In this document: positions 1,116 through 48,903 of the stretch, piece by piece
Layout of the letters: every line of letters begins with the position of its first letter
Numbering within the stretch: position 1 is the first letter of the stretch
Virus record (IMG/VR): IMGVR_UViG_3300042861_000978
Location: 1-62,520 of that record
DNA: 62,520 nucleotides
Strand: one strand, 5' to 3'
Source: a virus
Lineage: Duplodnaviria > Caudoviricetes
Position numbers and translations under genes: made by a program
The notes under the pieces: generated by a model
What the model was told of the DNA's origin: nothing
Databases searched by the model: none
The model's input: the letters and a program-made list of their open reading frames with translations, nothing else

Positions 1116-1117
1116 AA

Positions 1118-2091: not shown

Positions 2092-2123
2092 ATTTTTAAA
2101 ATTTTTATATTAATACTAAGCTA

Positions 2124-2154
2124 CAAATCTAAATAATTAATGTGGATTTATAAA
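2124..2154 (-). promoter_or_regulatory. Bacteroidota sigma-A-type promoter for the lysis cassette
   Basis: Minus strand TAGATTTG (2124-2131) matches the -7 consensus TAnnTTTG; TTTA 19 nt upstream is a -33 variant. Confidence 0.55.
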
Positions 2155-2209
2155 ACTATGATGAAAACATGGAAAGGATAATATAGCATAATATTATTTT
2201 ATTTTTCTA

Positions 2210-32011: not shown

Positions 32012-32878
32012 TTATTTATAAGAAAGCATTGCACTGGCGGTGAGGAATTGGCTCACTAGGTGTGTTGTACAATTGTCTTTTAATATATGTCTTATTTTTA
32101 ATTCTTTAGCTCTTATTGTAGCTTTTTTAAATGAGCGAGAAGAATAATCCATATTCTCTTGGTTAATCACTTTATCTATAGAAAGAGATTCACATGATGT
32201 ATTAAACATAGGAATGTAAGGATTTTTCTGTAATGCCCAGAAAGTATTATACTGATAGAAATTATCTGATTTAGTATATGTGATTGTTTTACTATCTGTA
32301 TTGTATATAGGATATTTATTATATGCTTGTAAGTTATTTTTTGGTTTAGGAACAAGTTCTAATAATCCAGAGCTTTGTTGTCCATTATAAAGAATAGCAT
32401 GTGTAAACCATTTATCATCCACTTCTATTCTTGTGTTATCATTAAATACACCATCAGGAATAGGGAGATATTCATATGCTTTTGTATAGTCTTTTACATT
32501 CTGTAAGATTTCATCTTGGTATTGATATGCAAAAGGGTATTCAATTATGTATGGTTCTATATTTCCATAATAAGAATTATACAATTGAATGTTGGTGAGG
32601 TGTCTCCATAAACAAGCTGTAGAAGATTGTGTGTATGTAGCTTCTTGATATTGATATATACTAATTACTTCTAAAGGAAACATTTTTTTAATCTTACATT
32701 TTCCTGTAGACTCTAAAACTATAAAATTTACATTATCATCTACAGTATAATTTACTCCTTGTATTAAAGATTTTTTAGAAACATTAGTTGCTAATACATC
32801 TCCATATTCTGTAGATATAGTAAATGAGCCAGCAATAGATCCAGCTTTTGTTAATTTTATGGTTGCAACTTTTGGCAT
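32012..32878 (-). CDS. Tail muzzle/stabilisation protein, C-terminal fragment, with N-terminal Ig-like module
   Basis: LWRH..YNSYYG..PYIIEY..FTHAILYNGQQSSG resembles the C-terminal part of crAss-like muzzle proteins; first ~70 aa resemble the N-terminus of 43185-43760. Confidence 0.6.
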   Translation of the reverse strand: MPKVATIKLTKAGSIAGSFTISTEYGDVLATNVSKKSLIQGVNYTVDDNVNFIVLESTGKCKIKKMFPLEVISIYQYQEATYTQSSTACLWRHLTNIQLYNSYYGNIEPYIIEYPFAYQYQDEILQNVKDYTKAYEYLPIPDGVFNDNTRIEVDDKWFTHAILYNGQQSSGLLELVPKPKNNLQAYNKYPIYNTDSKTITYTKSDNFYQYNTFWALQKNPYIPMFNTSCESLSIDKVINQENMDYSSRSFKKATIRAKELKIRHILKDNCTTHLVSQFLTASAMLSYK

Positions 32879-32882
32879 AGTA

Positions 32883-34439
32883 TTAAAGAGTTGTTGTAGT
32901 AGTAGTTGTTGGAGCTATAGTGGTGGTGGTGGTAGTTGTTGAGGAGCTAGTAGTTGTTGTTGTAGTGGGCTCTAGATTATTAGGAACACAACTATTAGGT
33001 TGTGTAGCTGCAACAACTGGTATTCCTATAGTTGCTACTTCTGTAATATCATATGGACTCTCTCTTCTAATGTTATATGTTATATTGTTATCATCTACAA
33101 AGAATATTGCACAATCGCACTCAAACATAGATGTTACAATAGTAGAACCTATATTAATATTTAATTCAAGTGTGGTGGTAGCATAATCATATTGAGATAT
33201 GTATGTATCACCAGATATTAAGTCTTGATTAGCAAATATTAATTTGCCTTCAAAGGTATATAATAAATTTGAAATTATTGTTATATCTGGTATTGAAAGT
33301 ATTAATGTACTAACTCCTATTGGATCTGTTATATCCATCTCTACAATATCAACACTAGTAGGAGCATTTGCATTATCTACACAAATCAATACATCATTAT
33401 TTAAAGCAGTAATTGGTCCTGGTACATACCCCATTGGGAAAGCTATTTCTCTGTTGTATGTAGCAGTAAAAGGATTTAATGTTATATCCCATTGTCTAAA
33501 TTCAGTATTATCTATACTCCATAAAAATTCAGGTGTCATTGCTAAACCATTTGCAGCCATAAAGTTTGGAGTATTTAATATTGATGTTGTATATCCTGAT
33601 AGTGTATCTAATAAGTACATACCATCAGTTGATAGTATTACAACACCACAACACTCAGGAATAAATATTGTAGTAGTAGTTGTAGTAGTAGTTCCACAAT
33701 CACAAGTTAGAATCTCAGTAATTACACCATTTACTACATGGTAGGCAGTACTATTAACTAAACTATTTTCATCATAATACCAACCATCTGCAACTAAAGA
33801 GCAATCTGTTAGATAATCAGTATTATATAATATCTGTCCTACAAATAAAGAAAGTGAAGTGACAGACATAGCAGAAAAACTTGTAAGAGTTTTTTCTACT
33901 CGAGATTGTATAACAGAAAATGATTCACATAATAACTCAAATGATGTAGAAGTGTTTACAGGAAGTTCTCCTGTTATTTCATATCCACTATATAATGTAT
34001 AAGAAACTAACCAAGAAGGTCTTTGACAAATTGTAGTTGTTGTAGTTGGTGGAACAGTAATTACTCCTGTACCAACTAAATTACAATCTACATCATATGC
34101 TGTTCCAACTAATGTACAATCTGTTGTAAATATAGTGGTAGATGTTGTTGTAGTGCTTGGAGGAATAGGAGCTGCTGTTGTAGTAGTAGTAATAGTTCTA
34201 TCAAGTCTACCAACTAATGCTAAGAAATCAGCCTCTACATCATTACAACAGTTATTTAAACCAGAGTAGAAGAAGTTGTTTTCTCCTATATACCAATTAG
34301 GAATGTAACTATGAAAAGAAGTCCATCTCTTTGTATTCATATTAAAAGATACAGTCCAAGACTTATTACAGAAAAATTCTGGATCTGTTAAACTAATAGG
34401 AGTTCTTGTTACAATTTTTATTTTTCCTTCTTGTTCCAT
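32883..34439 (-). CDS. Tail muzzle middle fragment fused to Thr-linked Cys-rich and beta-propeller-like modules
   Basis: N-terminal FCNKSWTVSF..WTSFHSYIPNWY continues the muzzle sequence; four poly-Thr tracts. Confidence 0.6.
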   Translation of the reverse strand: MEQEGKIKIVTRTPISLTDPEFFCNKSWTVSFNMNTKRWTSFHSYIPNWYIGENNFFYSGLNNCCNDVEADFLALVGRLDRTITTTTTAAPIPPSTTTTSTTIFTTDCTLVGTAYDVDCNLVGTGVITVPPTTTTTICQRPSWLVSYTLYSGYEITGELPVNTSTSFELLCESFSVIQSRVEKTLTSFSAMSVTSLSLFVGQILYNTDYLTDCSLVADGWYYDENSLVNSTAYHVVNGVITEILTCDCGTTTTTTTTIFIPECCGVVILSTDGMYLLDTLSGYTTSILNTPNFMAANGLAMTPEFLWSIDNTEFRQWDITLNPFTATYNREIAFPMGYVPGPITALNNDVLICVDNANAPTSVDIVEMDITDPIGVSTLILSIPDITIISNLLYTFEGKLIFANQDLISGDTYISQYDYATTTLELNINIGSTIVTSMFECDCAIFFVDDNNITYNIRRESPYDITEVATIGIPVVAATQPNSCVPNNLEPTTTTTTSSSTTTTTTTIAPTTTTTTTL

Positions 34440-34441
34440 GA

Positions 34442-37400
34442 TTAATCTTTTATAAGTCTAATTGCAAAACCTCTAGTTTTTTTAGTGGTTGATCCAGGAA
34501 GACCACCTCCAAGTGTGTATGTATAATAAGACCATGCATTTGTACTAGATGATGGTGTAGTTGACCACCAATTACCATAATCTCCTTCCCAATCAAAGCT
34601 ACCTGTTTCATCTCTAGTACCACTAGGAAGAGCTGTAAATCCATATAAATTTGTAGCATATGTATTTGGACTATTCCAATTTGTTAGCCCAACTTCTTTT
34701 AATTTACCTCCAGGATTTGAAGATAAAAATGTTGCTAATGTATCCCACTCTGCTTTACTTGGAATATGATATCCTACTGGAGCAAGTCCTCTAGGATCAG
34801 TAACTGCATACCAGTTATACAGCTTTCCATAGCAATTATCATCTGCATTATTGTAGTAACACCAAGCACCAGTAGTAAGATTGGCCCATTGAGTTGGATC
34901 TGTTACCTGAGGTATTGGTGTTCCATCTCTATAAGTGGATACATCAAGGTTACAAGCTGTCCAAATTTGTGTTCCTATCTCTACTTCTTCTAACGTACAA
35001 CAGTTTGTAGTAGTGGTAGTTGTTGTTGGTGGGCATATAACATCCTCACATAAATCTTCATAAGAAGAGCCTAATATATTATTATCAGCAACAGTATTAG
35101 TACATCCCAAAAATTCATTTATTTGTATTTTAAATCCATTTAAATAATAGTATTTATTTACTAATAAAGGTTCAGAGTTAGTTATAGTTGCTGGTCCAGA
35201 TATTGTACAAGTCTCACAATAAATCCAATCTATTGAATATCCCCAAGATGTACAAACTGTAGTAGAGGTTGTAGTAGTAGAAGAAGTAGATGTTGTTGTT
35301 GTAGCTGCATCAATATAAGTTACTGTTTCTATATAGTATTCATTTTTATCAGCATCATATTTTACATCTGGATCAATAGGAATGTAATCAAGTTTAGTGA
35401 TAATAACTCTATCAAACTTGCTATCATATACACCATGTAGTCCTACACCTGTAAAATTATTATCAGTTGGGACTTCTGGAAAATATCTAAGTATTTCAAA
35501 AGCTAAATGGTCTGTAAAGAATCTATTCATTCCTGAACCAAATGCTGAAAGATCAGCAGCTTGTGTTCCTTCAATAAGAAATACTTGCCCTCTTTTAGCA
35601 TCAACTGTTATTTGTCCTTGAGGAATCTTTAATAAAAATTTATTTTGACTTCCTACATATCCAAGATCAGTTTCTGCAAAATCAATTGGAGGAGCTCCTT
35701 TAAATAAAGAAGGATTACCAAAATATGCTGCTTGTGGATTACTTGTATCTACTGTTAATAGATTATTATATAATAATGATTTGTTTTCAAATCTAGCTAA
35801 TACAGCTTTGTTTTGAATACCATCTAGAGATATTAATCTACCATAGTTTTGAGGAAAATCAAAAAATGACAATGGTTTATACACTAACCAATTATTAATT
35901 CTATTATCTGCATTTTGATTTTGTAGTTCTGAGTATATAGCTCTAAAAGGATAGTTAGTTAAGCAAACATCATCTTTAAAATCATCTGGTAAATGTGTAA
36001 ATGTATTTTCTGTATTTTGTTTTGAAAATGTTGTGTTGTATGTATATGTATTATCATTAGCTATAGAAACATAACTTTCTTGTACCCAATCATCAGGAAT
36101 TCCTGTAGATACATGTGGCCAAAAATCTCCTTCTTTATTATTAAATGCTTGTCTTAAATCTACATTATATGATGTCTCACAGTAAAAATTAGGAATTCCA
36201 TATGCAAACAAATAAAAATATCCATCATAATACGTTCTAAATGTTCCTGGTATACCTGTTACACCTTGTTTTATTTGAGATGGATCATTAGGACAATCAA
36301 AGTTGTGAGCTTTATATGAAATAATATTTAACATAGGAGGCGCACTATTATAATTCTCTAAAATAGATCTTGCAGAATGCCAATACTTTGGGTAAGATAC
36401 ATTACCTAATTCATCATAAAATATATCTGAATCATCAGGGGCATTAACTCTATTATCAATAAAAAAAGGTAATTTAGTTTTAAAAGCAAAGCGTGATATA
36501 AATGTATCCCCTCCAAAAACTGTAGCAATTTCAGGATTGTTTTTAAAATTAATTCTTTGAAAACCTGTGTCAATTGTTTTGTAAGTATATATTTGTCCCC
36601 ATTGATTTGGTATAACATTTTTTAAAGAAGCATAATATGAAACAACTTGAATAGGTTGTTCTTCTGCAGGACTAGCACATCTATCACTTAAAGAAATTGT
36701 AGTTCTAGATTTATCTACAACAATAGGATTTCCTGTAGAGGAACTAATCATATCTGGAACCTGACTAGGAAATTCTAAAGCAGTTACTGGTATTAAGTTA
36801 TCTTTAACTTCTCTATTTTCTATTGTTTTAATAAATACAGAAGACTCTCTTTGGAAATTATTAATGTTTTTATCATCTCCTACATTCTGAACTCCTGGAA
36901 TTAAATATGTTGCTATATCAACTTCTCTTTGTTTTATTCCTAAATTATTATCAATATCAGCTTTATAATTATAATCTGCTATTGAGTTATATGAATAAGC
37001 ATAATTCTTTCTTGTAATACCATTTACATAAATAGTTAAGTATGCTTGATAAGCTGTAAACCTTGCAGTAATATCATTAGGAGCTATATCAAAAGAACTT
37101 TTTAACGCATCCACTTGAGCTTCTTTGGAAAGAAGTCTATATTTAGCATTATTTCTAACTTGTACAAAATGATCACGTCCTTGTCCATATATAACATTTT
37201 CAAGTTTTAAAACATTACCAAGAAAAGGCTGACCAAAAGAAGTTTCAGGAGAGTTAAAAACTTGTCTATATTTTGTTTCTTCATTAGCATTTGCTTTTAA
37301 TGGAGAATATTTTCCACAAGATAATGTTGATCTTCTACCTTTATTTTCACTTGAAGGAAGTTGGTTAAGTGCACAAAGTTCAAATTGATTTACAGAAAAT

Positions 37401-39631
37401 CTAACAGCAGATCCATTATCTCTAAATACTTGAGCATTTAGTGGTACTTTTTTCAACTGCGCTGCGGGATTAAACCCAATGTAAACACGATAGGTAAAAG
37501 TACCAGTATTATCAGATGACCAATCAATAGTACAATTTGCTACATTATATTGATCAAAATTATCATCTGGTATTAGCCTTATTACGTCATATTCAGCTGG
37601 ACCTATACTAGCTCTTCCAGATTTCCATATAGGTCTTGTTAAAGAACAAAATTCATAATTTGTTCCTACTTTCATTTCTTCTTCTATTGGTAAACCAGTA
37701 ATTACATCTGTATATTCAAATATTCCATCTTCTTTAGGAATTACCAACCAAGCTTTTATATCTCCAAACTTATTATTTGTTTCTGTAAGAAAAGGATCTT
37801 CATTTAAATCATTGTAAGGGTAGTTTGGGAAATAGAAAGATTGTTCTTCTCTTTTATATTCTCCTACATTTCTAAGAATACCTTTTGCTACAATAGATTT
37901 ATTTGTTCCTCTATCTCCTCTTAGTATTTTAAATCCTACAATTTCATTTTTTTGTTCTGTTGTAAGAGAAGAAGAATTAATAATATCTGCAACTTGTTTA
38001 ACATCTATTCTTATTCCAAGAGGGAATACAGCTGTAGTCCCCATTTCCATACTATTTATTCCTGAAAATATTTTTTCTTCAAATATTGGACTTACAAGAA
38101 CATCAGGAAACTTATGGTGTCTAATTGGTTTACCAGCTAAGTCTCCCCATATTTCTTCTACACATGGATATAAATCTTCTGACTCCCAATAAGCAAATTT
38201 TCCATACTCATAAGGACCTTTATAAGAATTTTTAGCAACATACCCTGGAGACTTAGAAATAACAGAAGCTGTATTATATATTTTCCAATAAGGACTATAT
38301 CCTACTGTCTTATCAAAATTATAAGATGTAGGGGTTCCAATAAAATCATTATTAGTTGTTGGTACATCTATATAAGATTCATTTGAGTCTTTTTCTCTTC
38401 CAGGTATATGAAACCCATCTGTTTGTCTTCCATTTGTAAGAAGAAAACAAATTTCTAAAGCATAAACTTCATCTCTTAAATATCCTCTTAGATTTGTTGC
38501 GTTTAATTCATCAGAATAGTTTTCTGTAGCAGGTATTCTCCAAGTTTCCCATTGGAGATTTATTTTATTTGCTATTGACTGATAATTAACTTTACTTATA
38601 GTTGTAAGATCACTCCATACTAATATATCTTGTACAGAAGTTACATCATTTGCTATATCATAATAGGGTTGTTTTTCAAATATATCACTTATTGCTAAAC
38701 GTATATTAGTTACATTTTGCCCTGTGTATGTAAGTTTTTCTGTAGGATTATTAATAAAGTATGTTCCTACTAATTCTACGGATGAAATAGCATTAACTGT
38801 TTTAATTACAGCTAGGTTATAATATTGAAACTGTCCTGTAGCATCTAGGTTTGATATTGATAGTATAACAGACTTTCCAACATTATAATCAAAGTTGGGA
38901 GTAGTAAGTTGTGTATCAGCAATAGGTGTTGGGTTAGTAACTGAGTAATATGATGTATATGGATTACCAGCAGCATCTGCATATTGAATAGCAAACTGAA
39001 CAGTTCCTGCTGTTAAGTTTCCTCCACTAACAACATCAACAACATCAATATTAGGAATATTAAAGTTAGGTTGTAACTTAAGTTGATTACAATCTATCTC
39101 ATTTGTAAATTTTAAATTACATTCATCAGAATCTGCAGCTAAAATATAAGGAATAGTTTCAGGATTTAAATCTAAGTATCTTCTAGGGTTTAAACCATCT
39201 GTCCAGTAAATTTCTGTTGTACAATTTGTAATTTTATGTACAACTTTAAGAATAGGGTAATTAATGTCAAAATTTAAACAAGGAGCAGATATAAAAGTGT
39301 GATAGATACAATCATTATTATCCATATAACCAATTTGAGAATCTTTGGTTAAAGGATTTGTAATAAAGAAAATATGTTTATTTTTTTCTTGAATAAAGTG
39401 ACGACCTATAAGAATATAATCTAAAGGAAACTGTAAACAAAATTCATTACCAGGTTCATTTTGGTAATTTACAGAACTCGCATCAAAGTTTTCCATATTA
39501 GCATTAAGAGCATAAGTCAAGGAACCTTTAGGAATCTGATTAACAGATTGATCCATATTAAGGCCTCCTGTACCTGTATTATACTCATTTCTAATATTTC
39601 CTTGAGATTGCTCTTGGGTATTATCTGCCAT
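34442..39631 (-). CDS. Tail muzzle/stabilisation protein (P22 gp10-like), N-terminal major part, ending in a Cys module and a FISUMP (Fib_succ_major) domain
   Basis: GGLNMD..YALNA..EIYWTDGLNPRR..RGYLRDEVY..PIRHHKFPD..GYVGSQ..VDAKRGQVF..GVYDSKFDRVIITK; C-terminal IGTQIWTACNL..YGKLYNWYAV..GNWWS..GFAIRLIKD. Confidence 0.8.
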   Translation of the reverse strand: MADNTQEQSQGNIRNEYNTGTGGLNMDQSVNQIPKGSLTYALNANMENFDASSVNYQNEPGNEFCLQFPLDYILIGRHFIQEKNKHIFFITNPLTKDSQIGYMDNNDCIYHTFISAPCLNFDINYPILKVVHKITNCTTEIYWTDGLNPRRYLDLNPETIPYILAADSDECNLKFTNEIDCNQLKLQPNFNIPNIDVVDVVSGGNLTAGTVQFAIQYADAAGNPYTSYYSVTNPTPIADTQLTTPNFDYNVGKSVILSISNLDATGQFQYYNLAVIKTVNAISSVELVGTYFINNPTEKLTYTGQNVTNIRLAISDIFEKQPYYDIANDVTSVQDILVWSDLTTISKVNYQSIANKINLQWETWRIPATENYSDELNATNLRGYLRDEVYALEICFLLTNGRQTDGFHIPGREKDSNESYIDVPTTNNDFIGTPTSYNFDKTVGYSPYWKIYNTASVISKSPGYVAKNSYKGPYEYGKFAYWESEDLYPCVEEIWGDLAGKPIRHHKFPDVLVSPIFEEKIFSGINSMEMGTTAVFPLGIRIDVKQVADIINSSSLTTEQKNEIVGFKILRGDRGTNKSIVAKGILRNVGEYKREEQSFYFPNYPYNDLNEDPFLTETNNKFGDIKAWLVIPKEDGIFEYTDVITGLPIEEEMKVGTNYEFCSLTRPIWKSGRASIGPAEYDVIRLIPDDNFDQYNVANCTIDWSSDNTGTFTYRVYIGFNPAAQLKKVPLNAQVFRDNGSAVRFSVNQFELCALNQLPSSENKGRRSTLSCGKYSPLKANANEETKYRQVFNSPETSFGQPFLGNVLKLENVIYGQGRDHFVQVRNNAKYRLLSKEAQVDALKSSFDIAPNDITARFTAYQAYLTIYVNGITRKNYAYSYNSIADYNYKADIDNNLGIKQREVDIATYLIPGVQNVGDDKNINNFQRESSVFIKTIENREVKDNLIPVTALEFPSQVPDMISSSTGNPIVVDKSRTTISLSDRCASPAEEQPIQVVSYYASLKNVIPNQWGQIYTYKTIDTGFQRINFKNNPEIATVFGGDTFISRFAFKTKLPFFIDNRVNAPDDSDIFYDELGNVSYPKYWHSARSILENYNSAPPMLNIISYKAHNFDCPNDPSQIKQGVTGIPGTFRTYYDGYFYLFAYGIPNFYCETSYNVDLRQAFNNKEGDFWPHVSTGIPDDWVQESYVSIANDNTYTYNTTFSKQNTENTFTHLPDDFKDDVCLTNYPFRAIYSELQNQNADNRINNWLVYKPLSFFDFPQNYGRLISLDGIQNKAVLARFENKSLLYNNLLTVDTSNPQAAYFGNPSLFKGAPPIDFAETDLGYVGSQNKFLLKIPQGQITVDAKRGQVFLIEGTQAADLSAFGSGMNRFFTDHLAFEILRYFPEVPTDNNFTGVGLHGVYDSKFDRVIITKLDYIPIDPDVKYDADKNEYYIETVTYIDAATTTTSTSSTTTTSTTVCTSWGYSIDWIYCETCTISGPATITNSEPLLVNKYYYLNGFKIQINEFLGCTNTVADNNILGSSYEDLCEDVICPPTTTTTTTNCCTLEEVEIGTQIWTACNLDVSTYRDGTPIPQVTDPTQWANLTTGAWCYYNNADDNCYGKLYNWYAVTDPRGLAPVGYHIPSKAEWDTLATFLSSNPGGKLKEVGLTNWNSPNTYATNLYGFTALPSGTRDETGSFDWEGDYGNWWSTTPSSSTNAWSYYTYTLGGGLPGSTTKKTRGFAIRLIKD

Positions 39632-39636
39632 AATGA

Positions 39637-40602
39637 TTAATTATTACGTCTTCTTCCATAACGAGAGATTCTATTAGGAAGCTCATACATATTAAATTTA
39701 TTTAACTGTTGTTTCATTCTATTCATCTTTGTATATACATCTTGCTTCTTAATTTCCATTTCTGCCATTATATAGGCTTCATCTGACAAAGATTTATAGT
39801 ATTGAAGTTTTTGTTGTAACTGATTAAATGTTTCATCATTAGTTTGATTAGCAAGCATTTCAAAAACTTTATACTTAATAAAGTGTTCTACATACTCTCT
39901 AATACGATAATTATCAGGAACTAATTGGTTACCTATTTCATCATAATCTGTTGCATAAAAAATTAAATGTACCACACCATTTCTAAAGTTTGTAACAAAT
40001 TTATTTCCTCTAATATCAAAAGAATCATAAGCAGAACCATAAGGAACATTACCTGTATTATTATGATATTGTCCATACAAATCTAAATTACTAGTGTAAT
40101 TAACATCACAGTTATGTTTAGTAGATATATTACCTGGTTTAAGTAAATAAGCTTGTCTATATGATCTAGCTTGTTGTGTATTAGTTTTGTATACAGCTTG
40201 TACAATATCTGGCATACATTCTGGACATCCTGTTGTACATCCTGTATTTGTACAAGGAGTCCCATTAAATGTAATAGGAGCTATTTGTATAGTTGTAGAT
40301 CCTGTTTGAGAATAAAATGAATTTGCTGTTTGATATGGTAGCAAAGGAATTTCTGCGCACATCCATGCTTCTCTAACAGCATAAAAGTTATCAGGTAGGC
40401 GAGCTTCAAAATCTTGAATTTCTAATGCTATTTCTGCTATAATATAACTAGACTTTCCTAACTTTTTAAGACACTTATCTAAATATGTTGGAAAAAGTAA
40501 ATCATCTACTGCACCTGTATCAAAATAGCTTTTAAGCTCTTCTTTCACTGTAGAGTAAATTGGTTCAGGACTAATAAAATTGTATTTATAATAAAAGCTC
40601 AT
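39637..40602 (-). CDS. Tail ring/tubular protein (P22 gp4-like)
   Basis: Between the IHF-like and muzzle genes as in crAss-like phages; ARLPDNF..TNFRNG.V.L..Y..DE.GNQLVPDN pattern. Confidence 0.7.
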   Translation of the reverse strand: MSFYYKYNFISPEPIYSTVKEELKSYFDTGAVDDLLFPTYLDKCLKKLGKSSYIIAEIALEIQDFEARLPDNFYAVREAWMCAEIPLLPYQTANSFYSQTGSTTIQIAPITFNGTPCTNTGCTTGCPECMPDIVQAVYKTNTQQARSYRQAYLLKPGNISTKHNCDVNYTSNLDLYGQYHNNTGNVPYGSAYDSFDIRGNKFVTNFRNGVVHLIFYATDYDEIGNQLVPDNYRIREYVEHFIKYKVFEMLANQTNDETFNQLQQKLQYYKSLSDEAYIMAEMEIKKQDVYTKMNRMKQQLNKFNMYELPNRISRYGRRRNN

Positions 40603-40607
40603 TGTTT

Positions 40608-41090
40608 TTATTTTTTAATGTTCCACTCACAATAAATATGTTGATATTTATCATCAGTATTAATATAGTGTGCTAGTAGTCTAGATGTCACTCTTGAAGG
40701 CTTAAAATACCAAAGATTAGAAAACCTAAATCTTGCAGGGTCCTTAAACCAATGCCAACCAAAAAAGTATCCTTCTGTATGATAATTAAAGTTGTATATA
40801 ACTTTTCCTTTTTCTTTTGTTTTTTTCCAATCTATAGGAAGATTGATAAATTCTTTTGTACCATTACTTTTTATTTTTCTTCTTTTCTTTTTGTTTATAG
40901 AAAAGTATCCAAATCCACATGGTAGTTGAATTTTTTCTCCTGTTTCTAAAATATAGTCTCTAAAAGCTTCGTTAAAAGAATATACTATTATTCTCCAATC
41001 ATCATAAGAAAGATTTATTTCAGGATGAGCTTTACAAAAAGCTATGTAATTTTCTTTACTTGAAGATCTAAACTCAACTTTTACTCTCAT
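40608..41090 (-). CDS. HU/IHF-like DNA-binding protein
   Basis: ILETGEKIQLPCGFGYFSINKKK resembles the HU/IHF signature; basic; crAss-like gene order. Confidence 0.7.
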   Translation of the reverse strand: MRVKVEFRSSSKENYIAFCKAHPEINLSYDDWRIIVYSFNEAFRDYILETGEKIQLPCGFGYFSINKKKRRKIKSNGTKEFINLPIDWKKTKEKGKVIYNFNYHTEGYFFGWHWFKDPARFRFSNLWYFKPSRVTSRLLAHYINTDDKYQHIYCEWNIKK

Positions 41091-41095
41091 ATATA

Positions 41096-41824
41096 TTAAC
41101 TAGTAGGCTTAGTGTTAGGAGCTTGACCATCTATTCCATCTGCTGTTATATCAGTTTTTAATGAGAAATATGTAGATAGAAGTTTTTGAGATGTTAATTG
41201 TAACACTTGCTGTTCTAAATATCCAGGAAGAGGAAACTTTTTATCTAAAGGATTAATACATATATCTTCTTCTGTATAACTTCTTCCACAATTACAATCC
41301 TCTGAATACATAATGCTGTTAGGGACATCTTCCTCAAAAAATGCAACAAATCTTACTGCTTCTAAATCTGGATTACTTATATATAAATATCCATTAGAAA
41401 TCCAGAAATAAGCTTCTTTTTTAATTATGGGAAGTTTTAAAAGATTTACATATCTATTTACAGATATTTCTTTAAACTTTGTAGCCTTACCCCCTAGCGC
41501 ATTAATAGAGTACACTCCTTGAATAACATATTGATAGTTACCTTCTGATATCCTTGGAAGTTTTTCTTTGCTCCTAGCCACTGTACATTCTTCTACATAA
41601 TCACAACATTCAGATAAAGGAACTTCTTTCATTTCTAAACAAGGAATTGTTGTAAATAATGTATCAGTTGCCCAGAGCTTTCTAAGATTTGTTTCTCTCT
41701 TAATTAATAAAAGAGAATTGTTTCTTATTTCACTTAGTATGGCTCTATCTGTTATGAGTGAATCAGTTGAAAGCAACTTATGAGTTGATCTAACATCTGA
41801 TACTAATTTTCTTCCTGTGCTCAT
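41096..41824 (-). CDS. Tail ring protein
   Basis: Gene order; YFWISNGYLYI..FEE..FPLPGYL pattern and size typical of crAss-like ring proteins. Confidence 0.6.
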   Translation of the reverse strand: MSTGRKLVSDVRSTHKLLSTDSLITDRAILSEIRNNSLLLIKRETNLRKLWATDTLFTTIPCLEMKEVPLSECCDYVEECTVARSKEKLPRISEGNYQYVIQGVYSINALGGKATKFKEISVNRYVNLLKLPIIKKEAYFWISNGYLYISNPDLEAVRFVAFFEEDVPNSIMYSEDCNCGRSYTEEDICINPLDKKFPLPGYLEQQVLQLTSQKLLSTYFSLKTDITADGIDGQAPNTKPTS

Positions 41825-41830
41825 ATTGTT

Positions 41831-43039: not shown

Positions 43040-43065
43040 AAAAATTTATATTAATTAAAATAACG

Positions 43066-43098
43066 TAAAGGTATAAAAAAATAATTTGAATAAACAAA
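43066..43098 (-). promoter_or_regulatory. Bacteroidota sigma-A-type promoter for the phosphoesterase-tail operon
   Basis: Minus strand TTTG (43095-43098), 21-nt spacer, TACCTTTA (43066-43073); directly after a terminator. Confidence 0.5.
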
Positions 43099-43117
43099 TA
43101 ATATGCTATTAAATAAT

Positions 43118-43149
43118 AAAAAACTCCCAAGCAAAAATTTACTTGGGAG
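43118..43149 (-). terminator. Intrinsic terminator
   Basis: 8-bp stem CTCCCAAG/CTTGGGAG followed on the minus strand by a T-run; a second hairpin lies at 43152-43184. Confidence 0.75.
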
Positions 43150-43184
43150 ATAAACTCAAAGAAAACCAACAAACTTTAGAGTTT

Positions 43185-43760
43185 TTATACTGTTGTTGTG
43201 GTTGTTGTTGTAGTAGGGCAATTACTTATACTCATAATTACACCACCGACAATTTCTGTTATTTCATTAGTATCTAAATCTGTTATGTAAAAACCATCTT
43301 CTAATAATGTACAATCTGTTGAAAATATTCCTAAATAAACAGTTTCTCCTAATGTAAATGATGCCAATTGACCAGCTTTTCCTTGCATAGTTCCTGAAGG
43401 AATATTTGTATCAAATTCATTAGAAGCTGTACATGCATCAAGAAAAGAACTTGTAAATATAAACTCTGGACCTCCTGATGGTGTATATTTCCAATTAAAA
43501 GATTTATTAATTAACCCTCCAGGTCTTTCACAAGGTGGTTCTGTTAATATTATATCAACATAATTAATACAATACTGAGAAGTAGATTTTACTCTTACAA
43601 CTGATGTAAAGTCAGGAACCAATGTAGATGTATAACCAGAAGTTAAATCAATCTTAGCAACACCCACTTCAAAAGGTGTAACAAACCCATCTAAATCTGA
43701 ATATAGATTAAAAGGACCACTGTCTGATCCTGCTGTTGTTAATGTTATAAATACTGTCAT
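43185..43760 (-). CDS. Virion surface protein: Ig-like module, Cys module, poly-Thr tail
   Basis: Both modules recur in 32012-32878 and 32883-34439; ends TTTTTTTTV. Confidence 0.6.
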   Translation of the reverse strand: MTVFITLTTAGSDSGPFNLYSDLDGFVTPFEVGVAKIDLTSGYTSTLVPDFTSVVRVKSTSQYCINYVDIILTEPPCERPGGLINKSFNWKYTPSGGPEFIFTSSFLDACTASNEFDTNIPSGTMQGKAGQLASFTLGETVYLGIFSTDCTLLEDGFYITDLDTNEITEIVGGVIMSISNCPTTTTTTTTV

Positions 43761-43772
43761 TTTATTTTTGGT

Positions 43773-44375
43773 TTAGCAATTAATTTCTTCTTTTTCCTCC
43801 CCATTTACTATTACAAGTGTATCAATGTCTATACATGGTGTATAGGTTGTATTCCCTAATGTTAAAAGCCCTCCTACTGGATCTCCTAAACAAGTTATTG
43901 CACTCCAACTTCCTCCATCGATTGTTAATGCTTGTAATCCATATATTTTACAAATTAATGGTTTTACTGTAGTAGTAGTTGTAGTTGTACATAAAATTTC
44001 TTCACAAGTTGCAAATCCTTCATCAGGTATTGAAGCATCACTTTCTCCTACATCACATCCTAAATATTCATAAGGAGATATTACAAACTCTCCTAGTTGA
44101 TAAAAATTAAACAGAGTTAAAGGATTTGAGTTATAAAGAAAACTGCTCTCTACAAATTCACAAAGTTCACAAGTTAGAACATCATAAGCATATTGCCATC
44201 TATTACATAATGCAGTGGTTGTAGTGGTTGTAGTGCTGCTTGTAGAAGTTGTTGATGTGCTGGTGCTAGTCGTTGTAGTACTACTACTAGTTGTACTGGT
44301 ACTAGTAGTACATATAAAAGGATTAACTTCTACACACACTCCATTACAATCACACTTTACAAATCCTGTAAACAT
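43773..44375 (-). CDS. Thr-rich, Cys-rich virion surface protein
   Basis: Long Thr/Ser tract, CELC..CEEILC module shared with two other proteins, second Thr tract, small Cys domain. Confidence 0.6.
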   Translation of the reverse strand: MFTGFVKCDCNGVCVEVNPFICTTSTSTTSSSTTTTSTSTSTTSTSSTTTTTTTALCNRWQYAYDVLTCELCEFVESSFLYNSNPLTLFNFYQLGEFVISPYEYLGCDVGESDASIPDEGFATCEEILCTTTTTTTVKPLICKIYGLQALTIDGGSWSAITCLGDPVGGLLTLGNTTYTPCIDIDTLVIVNGEEKEEINC

Positions 44376-44376
44376 A

Positions 44377-45534
44377 TTATGCTGGTATATACATTATGTA
44401 ATAGCAACCAATTGTTGGTTGGTTGTTTTGGTGAGCTTGACTTTGTCCTGTATCTTCTAAAGATACAGTTATATTTGATTCTGATAAAGAAGATAGTCCA
44501 ACAGTTGCTAAAGCTCCAGAAGTAGTAGATTGTAATCTATATGTCTCACTATTACCTCTGTCTTGATACCAAACAATAGGATTAGTAGTAGAAGGTGTTA
44601 TAAAAGGTCCTCCGCCTAAAGCTGTTGTAAAATGAGAATGTTTATTATCATCAACATTTACAATATGTGTATGAATAGGAATTTCAGGAATTCCTAATGT
44701 TACAAAGTTTGTTCCAAAACTAGCACCTAGGGTATAATTAGGATTAAGAGTATTAGATGAAGGATTAACATCTGGAGGAAGTGTATTTCCTCCCATACCA
44801 TTAGTAACACCAGCTAAAACTCTTCCTCTTAAATCAGGTGTACCATTTAAACCATTACAAAAATATATATTTTCATATTCAGATCCTACAATACCAGCTC
44901 CTGTATTAGTAAAGTTATTTAAAAGCGCAGTTGTAGGAAACCAAGGATAAGCTACATAAGGAACCATTTTTGTGTATTGCTTTGTAGTTGGACCAACAAG
45001 ACCTTCATCTTCTAATATATTAACAACTAAATTACTTAATTCATCTTCTAATACATAATTATTTAAACTTAAAATAGTTGTTGTTAATAATTGATCTGTT
45101 TGACACAGCTGATCTATTACTGCTTGAAGAACATTATGTGTATTAGAAAATGTTGTTTCCTCTACTGTTAAACATCCTTCATTATAAGGGCCTTCTAATA
45201 TTTCTAAATTATTAGTAACATTATTAACTAAATCTTGTAAATCACAAGCTGAATCAATAAGAGCTTGTAATAAATCATTTAATGTTGGACCAGCACATCC
45301 TACACAAGGAGGAATATTATTTGCTACTATTGAGCAAACTCCTTCTAAGTCTACAATAGGTTTAATACCTGTTCCATTTAATGTACTAATAAGAAATTGA
45401 GCTAGAGTTTGTTCTACAAATTCTAGTGTATCACCATTTTGAATTCCTAGTGCAGGAATATCTGCTCCTGTATATTTTACACATTTATCTGATGTAATTT
45501 CAGAGCATCCATTAAAACAATTTGTACAAGACAT
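44377..45534 (-). CDS. Tail fibre protein with tail-collar-like C-terminal domain
   Basis: FCNGLNGTPDLRGRV..GTNFVTLGIPEIPIHTH..AHQNNQP..YIMYI; Cys-rich N-terminus and coiled coil. Confidence 0.75.
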   Translation of the reverse strand: MSCTNCFNGCSEITSDKCVKYTGADIPALGIQNGDTLEFVEQTLAQFLISTLNGTGIKPIVDLEGVCSIVANNIPPCVGCAGPTLNDLLQALIDSACDLQDLVNNVTNNLEILEGPYNEGCLTVEETTFSNTHNVLQAVIDQLCQTDQLLTTTILSLNNYVLEDELSNLVVNILEDEGLVGPTTKQYTKMVPYVAYPWFPTTALLNNFTNTGAGIVGSEYENIYFCNGLNGTPDLRGRVLAGVTNGMGGNTLPPDVNPSSNTLNPNYTLGASFGTNFVTLGIPEIPIHTHIVNVDDNKHSHFTTALGGGPFITPSTTNPIVWYQDRGNSETYRLQSTTSGALATVGLSSLSESNITVSLEDTGQSQAHQNNQPTIGCYYIMYIPA

Positions 45535-45549
45535 AATATATATTTTATT

Positions 45550-46971
45550 TTATAAGTTTTTTACTAATCTTACTGAGCGACCATATTTTTTACCAAAAGA
45601 AAAAACTGATGCATTATTATTATTTTGAAATAAAATAAGGTAAAAAGCATCAGAAGCACCACTAGTTGTAACACTCCACCAATTACCACCTTCTCCTAAA
45701 TACCAAAAAGTACCAAAAGTATCTGGAGTACGGTTACCACCAGGTAAAGCTGTAAAGCCACTACTATTGGTTGCACCTGAACTCATATTCCAATGAGTAG
45801 TTCCTGCTTCTTTTAAAGCTTGTCCTGCTAATCCTCCTCCACCTAAAGAACTAATTAAAGTATTAAACTCTGTTTGTGTAGGAACATGATATCCTGCAGG
45901 TGCTAATTGTTTTCTCAATGCAGGGTTGGCAGCTGATGCTGCGTCATAAATTCCTGCCACAGCATACCAATTGTATAATTTGCCATAAACACATTCATTT
46001 GCTGGGTCATTGTCATAATAACACCATGCTCCTGTGGTAAGATTTTGCCAAGCTGCAGGGTTACTAACTTGAGGAATTGGAGTACCATCAGAGTATGTAG
46101 TTACATTAAGATTGCAAGCTGTCCAGGTTTGTGCACCAATAGTAACATCTGTTAGCTGACAACAAGTTGTGGTTGTTGTGGTTGTTGAGCTTGTAGTAGT
46201 AGTTGTTGTTGGAGCTATTGTTGTTGTAGTAGTGGTTGGTGTAACAGTTGTAGTTGTTGTAGTTGTTGGTGGTGTTGTAGTTGTAGTAGTTGTTGTAGGA
46301 ACACATAATACTGCTTCACAAGTAGATTGTTCTGTTTCTGTATTTATATTAAAAGAAGTAGGACTACTTGATGTACCCATAAATTCTAATATTTGAAAAA
46401 CAAATCCAGAAAAATCATCATAATAAAACTGCCCAACATTTAAAGGTCCAACATTTGCTCTTATATATGATCCACTAGTTTCACAAGTCTCACAAACAAG
46501 TTGTTCTATTCTATAAAGGTAACTAATTACAGTTGTAGTAGTAGTGGTGGTACTAGAACTTGTAGTTGTAGTAGGAGTTATAGTGGTGGTTGTAGTTGTT
46601 GTACTGCTGGTAGAAGTACTAGTTGTAGTACTAGTAGAAGAAGTAGTTGTACTAGTAGATGTTGTAGTTGTTCTTATTGGTGGAGCCTCAAAACAATTCT
46701 TCACACAATTTGCTGTTAGTTTTACAACTTGTGAAGCAATTTGATTAACAGAATATTTTGATACATAATCAGGGTTGATTTGTTTATAAAATAAAATTCT
46801 TCTGTATTGTATTAAATCAAAAATTGCTGATCCAGAAATAGGTTTATTCAGCATAAACACTATATTATTATACATAGTGCTTGAAAGCTGTGCTAATTTA
46901 CAATCTATAGAAGCTATTAATGAATTAATATCTCCACACTTTGTACAGTTAGTTTGTTTAGGATAGAGCAT
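45550..46971 (-). CDS. Tail hub-like protein carrying Thr tracts, a Cys module and a C-terminal FISUMP domain
   Basis: Helical N-terminal ~95 aa, two long poly-Thr tracts, IGAQTWTACNL..YGKLYNWYAV..GNWWS..GRSVRLVK. Confidence 0.7.
   Translation of the reverse strand: MLYPKQTNCTKCGDINSLIASIDCKLAQLSSTMYNNIVFMLNKPISGSAIFDLIQYRRILFYKQINPDYVSKYSVNQIASQVVKLTANCVKNCFEAPPIRTTTTSTSTTTSSTSTTTSTSTSSTTTTTTTITPTTTTSSSTTTTTTTVISYLYRIEQLVCETCETSGSYIRANVGPLNVGQFYYDDFSGFVFQILEFMGTSSSPTSFNINTETEQSTCEAVLCVPTTTTTTTTPPTTTTTTTVTPTTTTTTIAPTTTTTTSSTTTTTTTCCQLTDVTIGAQTWTACNLNVTTYSDGTPIPQVSNPAAWQNLTTGAWCYYDNDPANECVYGKLYNWYAVAGIYDAASAANPALRKQLAPAGYHVPTQTEFNTLISSLGGGGLAGQALKEAGTTHWNMSSGATNSSGFTALPGGNRTPDTFGTFWYLGEGGNWWSVTTSGASDAFYLILFQNNNNASVFSFGKKYGRSVRLVKNL
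46165..46672 (-). repeat. Two long (ACN)n Thr-codon tracts flanking a Cys module; similar tracts near 32890-32970, 33670-33693, 34030-34195, 35004-35030, 35255-35305, 43188-43215, 43965-43990, 44213-44310, 47745-47800
   Basis: GTT/GTA/GTG trinucleotide runs on the plus strand encoding poly-Thr on the minus strand. Confidence 0.9.
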
Positions 46972-47083
46972 TTATACAAAAGTTTTTAATTTTATTTGCT
47001 ATAGAATAACAAGCATTACATAGTCCTTGTTTTAATTGACACCCACATCCCACTTGTATCCCACACTTACTACAAATTGCCAT
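46958..47083 (-). CDS. Small Cys-rich protein, 41 aa (MAICSKCGIQVGCGCQLKQGLCNAC...)
   Basis: Translated by hand; 7 Cys including CxxC, CGC and CxxC; fills the intergenic gap and overlaps the next start. Confidence 0.75.
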   Translation of the reverse strand: MAICSKCGIQVGCGCQLKQGLCNACYSIANKIKNFCINALS

Positions 47084-47091
47084 TTTATTTA

Positions 47092-47655
47092 TTATTGAAA
47101 GTTAATTAAATAATTATTACCAGAACACCCACAGTTGTTATTGATAAAAGTATCTAACATCTTAGATGCTTTATTATATAATTTATTAGCTGTAATAGGA
47201 TCACAGTTATTAGCTGCTGCTATAGAACCCTGAATAAAGAAATATATTGTAGATAGATCCACTTTACTTTGTGTTTTAATAGCTTGATCGCATTCCATCA
47301 TATCTAATTTCATAAATGCTTCATCAAACTTTGCTTGTAATCTATCTACACGCATTATAGTTTTTTCTACAAAATATACCTCTGGTGGTTCTATAGTGTA
47401 TTTAAAAGAATATATTCCATCAGGAAGAGGTTGTTGTACTCCTGGTTCTGTTATTTCTAGTGTATCAGAAGTAAAAAAATTAAGTTCTAACACATTAAAT
47501 GGTATAGAAACTTTTTCAAATCCAGGTACACATATTTCTATAGTTGGATCTGTTACTACAGGAGGTTTAGTGGGATAGATAGAAATATCTAACACAGATA
47601 AACTAAGTACATCGAATGTAGGAACAATTGTTATATTTAATTGTATTTCGTCCAT
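47092..47655 (-). CDS. Virion structural protein (probable tail hub)
   Basis: Beta-rich N-terminus (LPDGIYSFKYT) plus helical C-terminus; follows the auxiliary capsid gene. Confidence 0.55.
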   Translation of the reverse strand: MDEIQLNITIVPTFDVLSLSVLDISIYPTKPPVVTDPTIEICVPGFEKVSIPFNVLELNFFTSDTLEITEPGVQQPLPDGIYSFKYTIEPPEVYFVEKTIMRVDRLQAKFDEAFMKLDMMECDQAIKTQSKVDLSTIYFFIQGSIAAANNCDPITANKLYNKASKMLDTFINNNCGCSGNNYLINFQ

Positions 47656-47662
47656 ATGGTTG

Positions 47663-47707
47663 AAAAAAAAATACCAGAGGAATGTGGAATATCCTCTCCT
47701 CTGGTAT
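47663..47707 (-). terminator. Intrinsic terminator after the auxiliary capsid gene
   Basis: 11-bp stem ATACCAGAGGA/TCCTCTGGTAT followed by T9 on the minus strand. Confidence 0.85.
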
Positions 47708-47730
47708 AGATTATTTATTAAAAAAGTTTC

Positions 47731-48903
47731 TTAAGGAATCAACGTACTTGTTGTTGAAGTAGTTGGCCATACAGTTGTAGTAGTAGAAGTTGTTGTAATA
47801 CAAGTTCCAGTTTCATCTACAAGTGTTCCTAGCAATCCTTCAATCAAATCATCAATATCTGTTTCAGCTCCACTATTTGAAGGAACAGCGATAATTACTT
47901 GAGAGTCTTGTTCGATGTAATCACCCCATTGGTAAGCTGATCTATCATACTCATTAAACTTAATGTAGTAAGTAGTGTAGTTAGTACCATCAGAAACCCA
48001 GCTTTCAAAGTTACCATTATACCCTACCATTCTGTAAAGGTGTTTTAGGTAACCAGCTTGGTAGCTGTAGAAGTTTTTCTCTAGTTGAATAATTTCATCA
48101 GAAGTACCTCTAGCATAGTTAGAACGTTGTGTAATTACAGCATTAGCAACAATGTTACAATTATCAGCAACAATAAAGTCAGCTGTAGTTGCAGGACCAC
48201 TGTATACAAATGTACGGAACCACATTCTATCAAACTCATAAGGGAATGCTGCAACATCACATGGTTGACCATATTTAGTTAATGGTTTTCCAGAGATACG
48301 AAGTTTAGCAGCAGAGTTATTACCGATTCTTTGGAATTGATAGAAATCATTAAAATTAATGTTATCAGGATTGATACCAGGAGCTTGTTGAGTAAGTTTC
48401 AAAATGAAAGCATCAATTAATGCTGGTACATCTACTGTATCACAAGGATCTGCACCACAATCACAACAAGGAGCTTGTACAGTTACTGAGCGTGTAAACC
48501 CATTAAAATACAATGTATCCAAGTAAGAAGAATGTGCACGTAGTGTTAATGTTACAACATCACCACAATGTACATTCCAACCATCAACATCTGTAACTTG
48601 AGTTACAGGAGTAGGACATCCAGATACTTTGTAAAATTCAGTTACATTTGATTTACAAGAAGAACCTGTAGGACATCCAGCAATTTTGTCAGAACGTTTT
48701 GTTCCTTGCAAATAAGTGTTAACTCTACCTTGAGCTACATAAAAGTAATTTCCTGTAGCAGTAGGAGATGCAGGATCAATTACAGTGTAGTCAGCGTTGA
48801 AGAAACCTACTTCACCTGCAGACAAATTTTGTGTACGACCTGTGCTAGCAATATTACTGCCAACAGGAACTACAAAAAGCGTGTTTAATGAAAAATCAGC
48901 CAT
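47731..48903 (-). CDS. Auxiliary capsid/decoration protein with Thr-rich C-terminal tail
   Basis: Codon usage resembles the MCP gene (CGT, TTC, AAC); followed by a strong terminator; crAss-like gene order. Confidence 0.65.
   Translation of the reverse strand: MADFSLNTLFVVPVGSNIASTGRTQNLSAGEVGFFNADYTVIDPASPTATGNYFYVAQGRVNTYLQGTKRSDKIAGCPTGSSCKSNVTEFYKVSGCPTPVTQVTDVDGWNVHCGDVVTLTLRAHSSYLDTLYFNGFTRSVTVQAPCCDCGADPCDTVDVPALIDAFILKLTQQAPGINPDNINFNDFYQFQRIGNNSAAKLRISGKPLTKYGQPCDVAAFPYEFDRMWFRTFVYSGPATTADFIVADNCNIVANAVITQRSNYARGTSDEIIQLEKNFYSYQAGYLKHLYRMVGYNGNFESWVSDGTNYTTYYIKFNEYDRSAYQWGDYIEQDSQVIIAVPSNSGAETDIDDLIEGLLGTLVDETGTCITTTSTTTTVWPTTSTTSTLIP

Follow-up and report, generated by a model that had tools for sequence, protein, structure and literature searches.

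This work describes how poly-threonine (poly-Thr) tracts and recurrent protein modules are combined in the outer tail proteins of a crAss-like phage lineage. The starting point is IMG/VR virus record IMGVR_UViG_3300042861_000978 (Duplodnaviria, Caudoviricetes), a stretch of 62,520 nucleotides (nt) that was analyzed at its full length and is called the window here. We consider it probable that the lineage as a whole shares a kit of modules on these proteins and that the modules are exchanged at tracts that are selected as protein spacers or tags, probably glycosylated, and that work as de facto joints. Two comparative results carry this reading. Across relatives of the window, modules were shown to have been inserted, deleted, replaced, and moved between different handles, the handles being the N-terminal parts presumed to fix each protein to the virion. 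In addition, the junctions of module exchange were shown by alignment to lie in or at Thr tracts far above chance.

Poly-Thr tracts and modules in the window

A tract was defined as a run of at least 5 Thr/Ser residues including at least 4 Thr, and the 17 open reading frames (ORFs) between 28 and 50.7 kb were examined. The original prediction, made from the letters of the window alone, had counted about a dozen poly-Thr tracts in six ORFs. This count holds: 19 Thr/Ser runs were found in 6 of the 17 ORFs, or 13 after merging runs no more than 4 residues apart. Across the whole window, the tract carriers are 6 of the 32 minus-strand ORFs of at least 110 residues. These six are listed below, followed by ORF3 and a tail-fiber-like ORF; T7 and T8 denote runs of seven and eight Thr, and FISUMP is the domain of Pfam family PF09603.

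34442-39631, minus strand: ORF1, 1729 residues; core, residues 1-1443 (35303-39631); Thr/Ser tract 35258-35302; module A 35027-35257; T7 35006-35026; FISUMP ~34445-35005
32883-34439, minus strand: ORF2, 518 residues; residues 15-63 continue the homology to residues 2052-2100 of gp43 of Cellulophaga phage phi17:2; three short tracts; module B 33693-34031; T8 33669-33692; 234-residue domain 32967-33668; terminal tracts 32889-32966
43185-43760, minus strand: 191-residue protein; module C (43542-43760) directly joined to module B (43209-43541); terminal T8 tag 43191-43214
43773-44375, minus strand: 200-residue protein; 22-residue Cys-rich N-terminus; 32-residue Thr/Ser tract 44214-44309; module A 43983-44213; T7 43968-43988, then a 64-residue module at the C-terminal end
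45550-46971, minus strand: 473-residue protein; 100-residue N-terminal handle; compound tracts 46531-46671; module A 46297-46530; four tracts 46165-46296; FISUMP 45553-46164 at the distal end
47731-48903, minus strand: 390-residue conserved protein; two terminal Thr/Ser tags 47743-47796
32012-32878, minus strand: ORF3, 288 residues; module C as N-terminal handle 32669-32878, then a conserved C-terminal part
44377-45534, minus strand: 385-residue tail-fiber-like protein between the modular genes; tract-free in the window

The N-terminus of the tail-fiber-like protein has relatives that head tract-bearing proteins elsewhere.

Module A had been predicted three times and modules B, C, and FISUMP twice each, recurring across different proteins. 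The predicted coordinates proved right within a few bases, and profile tests confirmed all four as real homologous domains. For these tests, profile hidden Markov models (HMMs) were built from one window copy and its relatives in 80 related contigs. The three copies of module A (35027-35257, 43983-44213, and 46297-46530) match in pairwise blastp at E values of 6.6e-6 and 1.1e-4, and HMMs seeded on a single copy found the other two in round 0 (E 4e-8 to 8e-4). When module A and FISUMP are taken together, the window copies match at E 1.7e-45 in blastp. The copies of module B (33693-34031 and 43209-43541) match at E 5.7e-6 in blastp and, after one profile iteration on relatives, find each other at E values of ~1e-25 to 4e-31. 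For module C (32669-32878 and 43542-43760), the pairwise blastp comparison is not significant (E 3.9), and significance came from the profiles: that built from the relatives of one copy found the other at 3.4e-10, and the reverse search gave 2.1e-8, both scores being taken before the other copy had joined the model. FISUMP was recognized in ORF1 (residues 1550-1728; 127.8 bits, E 7.7e-37) and in the 473-residue protein (residues 276-471; 125.5 bits, E 4e-36), in each case across model positions 1-187 of 187 and above the curated cutoff of 33.9 bits. A search of FISUMP against sequences in the Protein Data Bank (PDB) returned matches to PPR repeats over 25 residues, which were rejected as spurious.

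Structure prediction gave further detail on modules C and A. The AlphaFold2 model of module C is a beta sandwich with a predicted local distance difference test (pLDDT) score of >90 for residues 1-72. A Foldseek search returned nothing below E 0.5 for it; in the wide VIA-align search, the top solved chains were nearly all Fn3/Ig-like (Z 4.7-6.0, below the Z 8 that the tool treats as distinctive), with a root mean square deviation of ~3 Å over 60-79 aligned residues. Module A is modeled as a small all-beta domain (pLDDT >90 for residues 55-130) with four invariant Cys in a CxxC...CxxxxC pattern. Against the protein atlas, modules A and B matched viral hypothetical clusters alone, with scores of 0.78-0.81 for A that serve as leads only.

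Module A was also surveyed beyond the lineage. Its profile retrieved 110 proteins at E≤1e-3 from a library of 1.84 billion representatives. Among 113 full-length A domains, a tract lies within 15 residues on the N side in 80 and on the C side in 58, and the domain ends the protein in 44. Ten representatives that were looked up came from metagenome or sequence collections only, with the label "hypothetical protein" in two clusters. One metagenomic protein, P0001 (1549 residues), has six copies of A, some of them in tandem, with short Cys/Pro linkers instead of Thr tracts between copies. Module A is therefore not tied to poly-Thr outside the lineage.

Module exchange across the lineage

To follow the modules through related genomes, the core of ORF1 was used as a search query, which retrieved 80 loci at 58-86% identity; the match nearly always ends at residues 1434-1438, before the first tract. 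The coding strands of these loci and of the window hold 354 tract-bearing ORFs with 768 merged tracts. The 821 inter-tract segments of at least 35 residues form 143 clusters, of which 70 have a single member, and are arranged in 159 architectures, so that a fixed module order among relatives, which would have spoken against the original prediction, is not what was found. Three modules always come first in their protein: module C, a 99-residue Cys-rich module, and a 100-residue module. The placement of module C at the N-terminus had been predicted from its two window copies, and among relatives 209 of 214 matches to it begin no more than 5 residues from the ORF start. We infer that these three modules are virion handles.

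The modules that follow the handles are found in varied company. FISUMP (n=22) stands behind the core 8 times, behind the 100-residue handle 7 times, behind the 99-residue handle 5 times, and behind module C twice, and module A (n=21) stands behind at least 4 different first modules. A maximum-likelihood tree of 27 FISUMP copies needs 10 handle changes, against a minimum of 4, and its starred branches require no fewer than 2 changes for the core, 2 for the 100-residue handle, and 3 for the 99-residue handle. Individual rearrangements can be read from locus L003, which differs from the window by a 73-residue and a 100-residue module inserted inside existing tracts and by the replacement of module B with a T7 tract and a 108-residue module.

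The core gene has itself been interrupted. At 6 of 14 loci (L006, L009, L010, L013, L014, and L015), the core runs uninterrupted into the segment that opens ORF2, as in phi17:2 gp43. In the window and at seven of the 14 loci, a cassette stands behind the core that starts with a Thr tract and ends in a stop codon; the cassette types are T-A-T-FISUMP, T-A-T-A, and T-T-FISUMP, where T is a tract, and the rest of the gene restarts at its own ATG two bases on. The cassette site is tract-free in unsplit relatives, and the junction that split this gene is therefore not a tract-to-tract event.

Where homology ends relative to the tracts

Breakpoints were counted over all locus pairs, and ends at which homology just resumes past a tract indel were removed. 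Distinct ends of high-identity matches lie in tracts in 28 of 224 cases, compared to 5.6 ± 2.3 expected (maximum of 13 in 300 draws), and 44 distinct ends lie within 30 nt of a tract, compared to 12.6 expected. With the null model restricted to tract-bearing ORFs, 28 of 85 ends fall in tracts (7.5 ± 2.6 expected); for ORFs shorter than 1200 residues, the figure is 26 of 46 (6.8 expected).

Proteins with different handles allow a more direct view of the junctions. Different first modules together with at least 200 nt of shared DNA at ≥75% identity were seen in 87 ORF pairs; 73 of these are uninformative because their match starts within 60 nt of the ORF start, an effect of ORF calling or of short first segments. 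In 10 of the 14 informative pairs, both partners have a tract no more than 1 nt from the point where homology sets in (chance rate, 11.5% per side), and the remaining 4 pairs are fragments of the core gene where it is split or truncated. L075 and L076 account for one event among the 10, and the L003/L005 pair reflects the 100-residue insertion, not a handle swap. In the L031/L062 pair, one protein has handle C and the other the 99-residue handle, and their shared 695 nt, 80% identical, begin inside the long tracts. Distal cassettes are shared between different-handle proteins at 75-92% nucleotide identity, so some of the swaps are recent. Breakpoints between relatives are enriched at Thr tracts, and the pattern that would have spoken against the original prediction, breakpoints unrelated to the tracts, was not seen.

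The same can be seen at close range between the window and locus L002, which is 97.2% identical over 11.9 kb. In ORF2, identity is 95-100% up to six residues past a T5 tract and then ~45% as far as the terminal tract, with 95% regained in the next gene. In ORF1, identity is 97-100% through module A and drops directly past the T7 tract (35006-35026) to 82% and then 69-74%. Of the seven internal in-frame indels between the two, three (54 of 66 nt) are in tracts, against a tract share of 3.6% of the DNA. One of these, at 44254-44299, is also present in contigs of three studies. A 75-kb contig of run X4 has the same replaced segment in ORF2 (32911-34018), together with replaced segments away from tracts at 34465-34583, 37271-37804, and 44712-44938.

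Further divergent patches were noted in these comparisons. The FISUMP of ORF1 (34445-35005) is 69-82% identical between the window and L002, with its C-terminal part the most diverged, and within it 34465-34583 is swapped for 129 other letters in contigs of runs X4 and X5. By this comparison, the C-terminal part is a local divergence hot spot despite the lack of a reverse transcriptase (RT). Patches of the ORF1 core at 36195-36431, 37032-37151, and 37271-37771 are 72-82% identical or replaced (in L002 or X4), the rest being 93-99% identical, and none is near a Thr tract. In the tail-fiber-like ORF (44377-45534), a 225-nt segment (44712-44938) that is not tract-bounded is replaced by 231 letters in X4, and four 3-nt indels relative to L002 cluster in the same interval.

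The same counts could be explained if the tracts were passive linkers or glycan tags, exchange were rare and ancient, and the breakpoint excess came from selection at domain boundaries and from the way alignments behave in low-complexity sequence. We judge this account unlikely. It would be at ease with the paralogous module copies of the window, which are 26-42% identical and evidently old; with the closest relatives, L002 and L005, which have the same module order as the window; with the 196 of 224 homology ends that lie outside tracts; and with the tendency of low-complexity tracts to attract unrelated metagenome reads and false joints. The breakpoint counts, moreover, lack phylogenetic independence, and alignments can extend by chance into low-complexity tracts, which makes "in" and "at the edge of" a tract inseparable. 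Rare and ancient exchange is difficult to reconcile, on the other hand, with 159 architectures in 354 ORFs of one lineage with cores at 58-86% identity, with distal cassettes shared by different-handle proteins at the identities given above, and with identity steps at tracts between genomes 97% identical elsewhere. The enrichment also survives both the same-ORF null and the removal of ends at which homology picks up again past a tract indel. If linkers tolerate change and viable chimeras are selected there, the same breakpoint pattern is expected as from recombination joints; the tracts may increase crossover frequency or may simply be the places where recombinants survive.

Several candidate junctions in read data were rejected. 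Many apparent joints between different tracts in contigs of runs X2 and X5, and loose ends in raw-read run X21, proved to be homogeneous (ACT)n/(ACA)n-type sequence from other organisms, and both were discarded as evidence for recombination and as evidence about this phage. Of the X21 reads, 613 of 634 lie only partly on the stretch. Freshwater reads of X21 that map to 33669-33692, 35259, and 46247-46296 match tracts alone and continue as (ACT)n/(ACA)n-type repeats; that sample is therefore rich in poly-Thr coding runs of other organisms.

Tract length and codon use

Tract length is sharply distributed. Among 1067 tracts, 471 are exactly 7 residues long and 181 are 8; pure-Thr runs never exceed 9 residues, and longer tracts always have Ser mixed in. 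The residue before the tract is very often Pro, and the one after it is hydrophobic. Cys lies within 6 residues before the tract in 381 of the 1067 and within 6 residues after it in 349, and many modules both begin and end with Cys. In 160 of the 1067, the tract ends no more than 5 residues from the C-terminus and links nothing.

The DNA of the tracts is far less uniform. The 308 pure T7 tracts are encoded by 224 different 21-mers, with ACA, ACT, and ACC mixed at every position, and same-codon runs within them equal random expectation. Exact DNA matches between window tracts reach 18 nt at most, compared to 19.0 ± 1.7 under random synonymous codons. In all, shared exact matches, a conserved 21-mer, and codon runs were sought, and none gave a signal beyond random Thr coding. 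The tracts look to be selected as protein, not DNA: a length that is conserved while the codons vary freely speaks against both a DNA signal and free slippage.

These features bear on the proposal that the (ACN)n tracts are DNA-level recombination hot spots that evolved to shuffle adhesin modules, as an RT-free counterpart of diversity-generating retroelements (DGRs). The enrichment of breakpoints at tracts, the insertions inside tracts of L003, and the tract-length indels between near-identical genomes (found also in contigs of three studies) are all to be expected of such a device, and the 3-nt periodicity of the tracts guarantees in-frame products. The proposal of diversification without an RT agrees with the genomes as well, in that RVT_1 (PF00078) was found neither in the window (0 of 1, ~54% of a genome) nor in any of the complete relatives (0 of 5, 97-100% complete). 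We nonetheless hold it improbable, since the codons are random and share no conserved DNA motif, the longest tract match is no more than random coding would give, and a length fixed at seven residues while codons vary is the signature of selection on protein. Tracts at C-termini join nothing, the cassette that splits the muzzle-position core gene entered a tract-free site, and in a few proteins module A is present as tract-free tandem copies (P0001) or is joined by a PT linker (P0013). The original prediction that modules are swapped by way of the tracts accordingly survives in part: exchange between handles and junctions at tracts are supported, and the idea of tracts as recombination devices is not, given their random codons and protein-fixed length.

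A bolder combination of both roles can be stated, which we hold to be doubtful. Here, Pro-T7 would be at once a sugar-coated stalk and a universal in-frame DNA splice site for all outer tail genes, and >100 plug-in modules would be re-dealt onto any handle by short-homology recombination, giving RT-free diversification of host range at the population level.

A candidate glycosylation enzyme

All 5 of the 5 complete relatives have a gene for a 338-residue protein, and so does the contig of L005, a locus of the same subclade as the window. The 32 aligned homologues of this protein share invariant motifs that include FYCDSD (a hydrophobic strand followed by CDSD), and this DxD-type motif suggests a putative glycosyltransferase-like enzyme. 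In the two genomes examined around GT2 matches (G001 and G005), the ORF adjoins poly-Thr ORFs, and no more than 8 kb away from it in G001 are GT11 (E 2e-27), GT2, and a gene of methyltransferase type. Outside the window, the 338-residue gene and the GT2, GT11, and methyltransferase-like genes may thus form a glycan-building cluster. By collinearity with L005, the gene would lie ~3 kb beyond position 1 of the window. The neighborhoods of poly-Thr ORFs and the 338-residue ORF are as follows:

L082 (G001:C1:58000-77000): 637-4261 and 8790-10766
L083: 779-2796 and 8080-9448

Glycosylated spacers or tags are the likelier primary role of the tracts, compared to a recombination joint, because tract length is fixed, codons are random, tracts occur as C-terminal tags, and a conserved DxD gene stands beside poly-Thr genes in the two genomes examined. 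We regard this as a well-motivated reading of the genomic data.

A proposed model for modular tail proteins

The reading that we consider probable combines these elements as follows. N-terminal handles would fix each protein to the virion; these are the core at the muzzle position, the Fn3/Ig-like module C, the 99-residue Cys-rich handle, and the 100-residue handle. Display modules, which comprise small Cys-rich beta domains such as A and B and the lectin-type FISUMP, would hang distally from the handles on Thr runs. The typical tract, Pro-T7-hydrophobic, would serve as an extended spacer or tag decorated by the phage's own glycosyltransferase-like enzymes. A crossover inside a tract would stay in frame and give a viable chimera, because the tracts are 3-periodic ACN code and tolerate changes in length, and in-frame crossovers of this kind would make the tracts de facto joints for the exchange of modules between coinfecting relatives.

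Besides the age of the window's paralogues, the conserved order in its closest relatives, and the limits of the breakpoint counts given above, several points weigh against this reading. The wide VIA-align search found no fold match for module A (best Z 3.6), and module B was modeled poorly (pLDDT 55-92), so that only its residues 1-78 were effectively searched by structure. Of 20 module representatives compared to Pfam, 17 had no match, and the other three had only sub-threshold ones (Lcl_C, CBM_4_9, and fn3). The window, a 54% fragment, is without the gene for the 338-residue enzyme, the protein itself matched nothing in Pfam or among PDB sequences, and GT2 is above the cutoff in only 2 of 4 complete relatives.

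Comparison to known systems

The nearest known principles are the exchange at conserved motifs in T-even phages (PMC3157838) and the anchor/receptor-binding-domain hot spots of tailspikes (PMC10408124; bioRxiv 10.64898/2026.05.12.724579). We class the present finding as a variant of the known modular shuffling of receptor-binding proteins, jointed here by Thr runs. In the T-even gp38/gp37 adhesins, hypervariable segments are separated by conserved glycine-rich motifs (PMC3157838, citing Tetart et al. 1996 and 1998), and in both systems short, conserved low-complexity motifs part variable recognition segments. The T-even motifs appear there as the Gly-rich structural core of one domain in one gene, whereas the Thr runs described here lie between autonomous domains, in at least six genes per genome, and are common to unrelated handles. 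T-even exchange was demonstrated by crosses (PMC3157838), and exchange here by comparison only; chimera junctions in the motif between segments, the hallmark of the gp38 type, are likewise found here on comparative evidence only.

Tailspikes and fibers consist of an anchor and a receptor-binding domain, and conserved junction motifs have been proposed in them as recombination hot spots (PMC10408124; bioRxiv 10.64898/2026.05.12.724579). The likeness lies in the conserved N-terminal anchor, the exchangeable distal domain, and the short conserved boundary proposed for crossover. The tailspike hot spots are specific in sequence, ~30 residues long, and of high identity, whereas the tracts are homopolymeric Thr with random codons, occur many to a protein, and also serve as terminal tags. 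Antireceptors of Streptococcus thermophilus phages are described as having domains separated by collagen-like repeats (PMC5601072, citing Duplessis and Moineau 2001). They share with the proteins described here a codon-periodic low-complexity repeat between the domains of a host-range protein; their repeat is a Gly-X-Y triple helix in a single gene of phages of Gram-positive hosts, whereas the repeat here is a run of Thr. DGRs target C-type-lectin-like domains including the Fib_succ_major/DUF1566 class (PMC5758913), and in both cases a FISUMP-class ligand-binding domain lies at the C-terminus of phage surface proteins. Unlike DGRs, the system described here exchanges whole domains without templated mutagenesis, in genomes that, as noted, lack an RT.

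Thr-rich segments are familiar from other settings. Chitinases and cellulases have Thr/Pro-rich linkers, often glycosylated, between catalytic and binding modules; these are secreted cellular enzymes, whereas the proteins described here are virion proteins assembled in the cytoplasm and have a sharply fixed T7 unit. In mycobacteriophages, virions are reportedly O-glycosylated, with Ser/Thr-rich tails on structural proteins and phage-encoded glycosyltransferases (work attributed to Freeman et al. in 2023). The present phages differ in that they are of another lineage, the candidate enzyme is the 338-residue DxD protein, the tracts also link shuffled modules, and glycosylation is predicted. No description of poly-Thr or Thr-rich linkers in phage virion proteins was found in full-text literature searches of a collection with few subscription journals.

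Phage and genomic context

The window, a 62.5-kb viral record judged to be ~54% of a genome and with a GC content of ~30%, reads as about half the genome of a freshwater crAss-like podovirus. The large terminase, portal, and major head protein are encoded on its minus strand, as are two proteins of the crAss tail:

39637-40602, minus strand: crAss tail ring protein 1 (PF24228 CrAss_Ring_1, 39.7 bits, cutoff 27)
41096-41824, minus strand: crAss tail ring protein 2 (PF25702 CrAss_Ring_2, 73.8 bits, cutoff 27)

Both ring-protein genes lie directly upstream of ORF1, the arrangement of a crAss-type tail module. Between them is a 160-residue ORF (40608-41090, minus strand) with a weak Bac_DNA_binding match (E 0.0034, 18 bits, below the cutoff of 22.4). 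The first ~1435 residues of ORF1 match gp43, a 2289-residue virion structural protein of phi17:2. The label "muzzle" for ORF1 derives its support from gene order behind the ring proteins and not from sequence. A Pfam search with the core returned nothing at E≤0.01, and hence no match to PF25731 crAss_MUZ; a PF25731 profile search of the genomes gave nothing at E≤1, with the control likewise matching nowhere. Searches of PDB sequences with the core, both as a single sequence and as a 15-sequence profile, gave no match, including to the solved PhicrAss001 protein, and the 390-residue protein (47731-48903) had no match in the PDB.

Four giant proteins (2006, 4313, 911, and 1343 residues; 2210-28022, minus strand) come after ORF1. 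These internal proteins, 8573 residues in total, have zero Cys, and the outer tail proteins have 1.4-7% Cys. A 324-residue ORF (31032-32006, minus strand) matches NUMOD3 (E 1.8e-6) and NUMOD1 (E 7e-5), has an N-terminus that is GIY-YIG-like by eye, and is probably a homing endonuclease; it is absent from L002, although L002 is 95-98% identical on either side. The window has no tRNA gene, and so no phage tRNA-Thr links to the tracts.

A megablast search of the whole stretch against GenBank phages returned zero matches. Distant protein relatives are Cellulophaga phi17:2/phi4:1, csAssE-Sib, and a Leptolyngbya phage, all at ≤33% identity, and a 3.9-kb stretch of the window is present in 20 runs from 16 freshwater or lake studies. 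The host is probably a member of the Bacteroidota.

Significance

Sequence is a difficult guide to which hosts uncultured crAss-like phages infect. The lineage described here shows how such phages can rebuild their surface proteins, with few virion handles, a large library of interchangeable modules, and one standard joint. It also supplies a rule for parsing these proteins, namely, to cut them at the Thr runs, and the module families listed are candidates for glycan binding. If the T7 runs are glycosylated by the 338-residue enzyme and crossovers do fall within them, one short peptide unit would link virion glycosylation to the modular evolution of host range.

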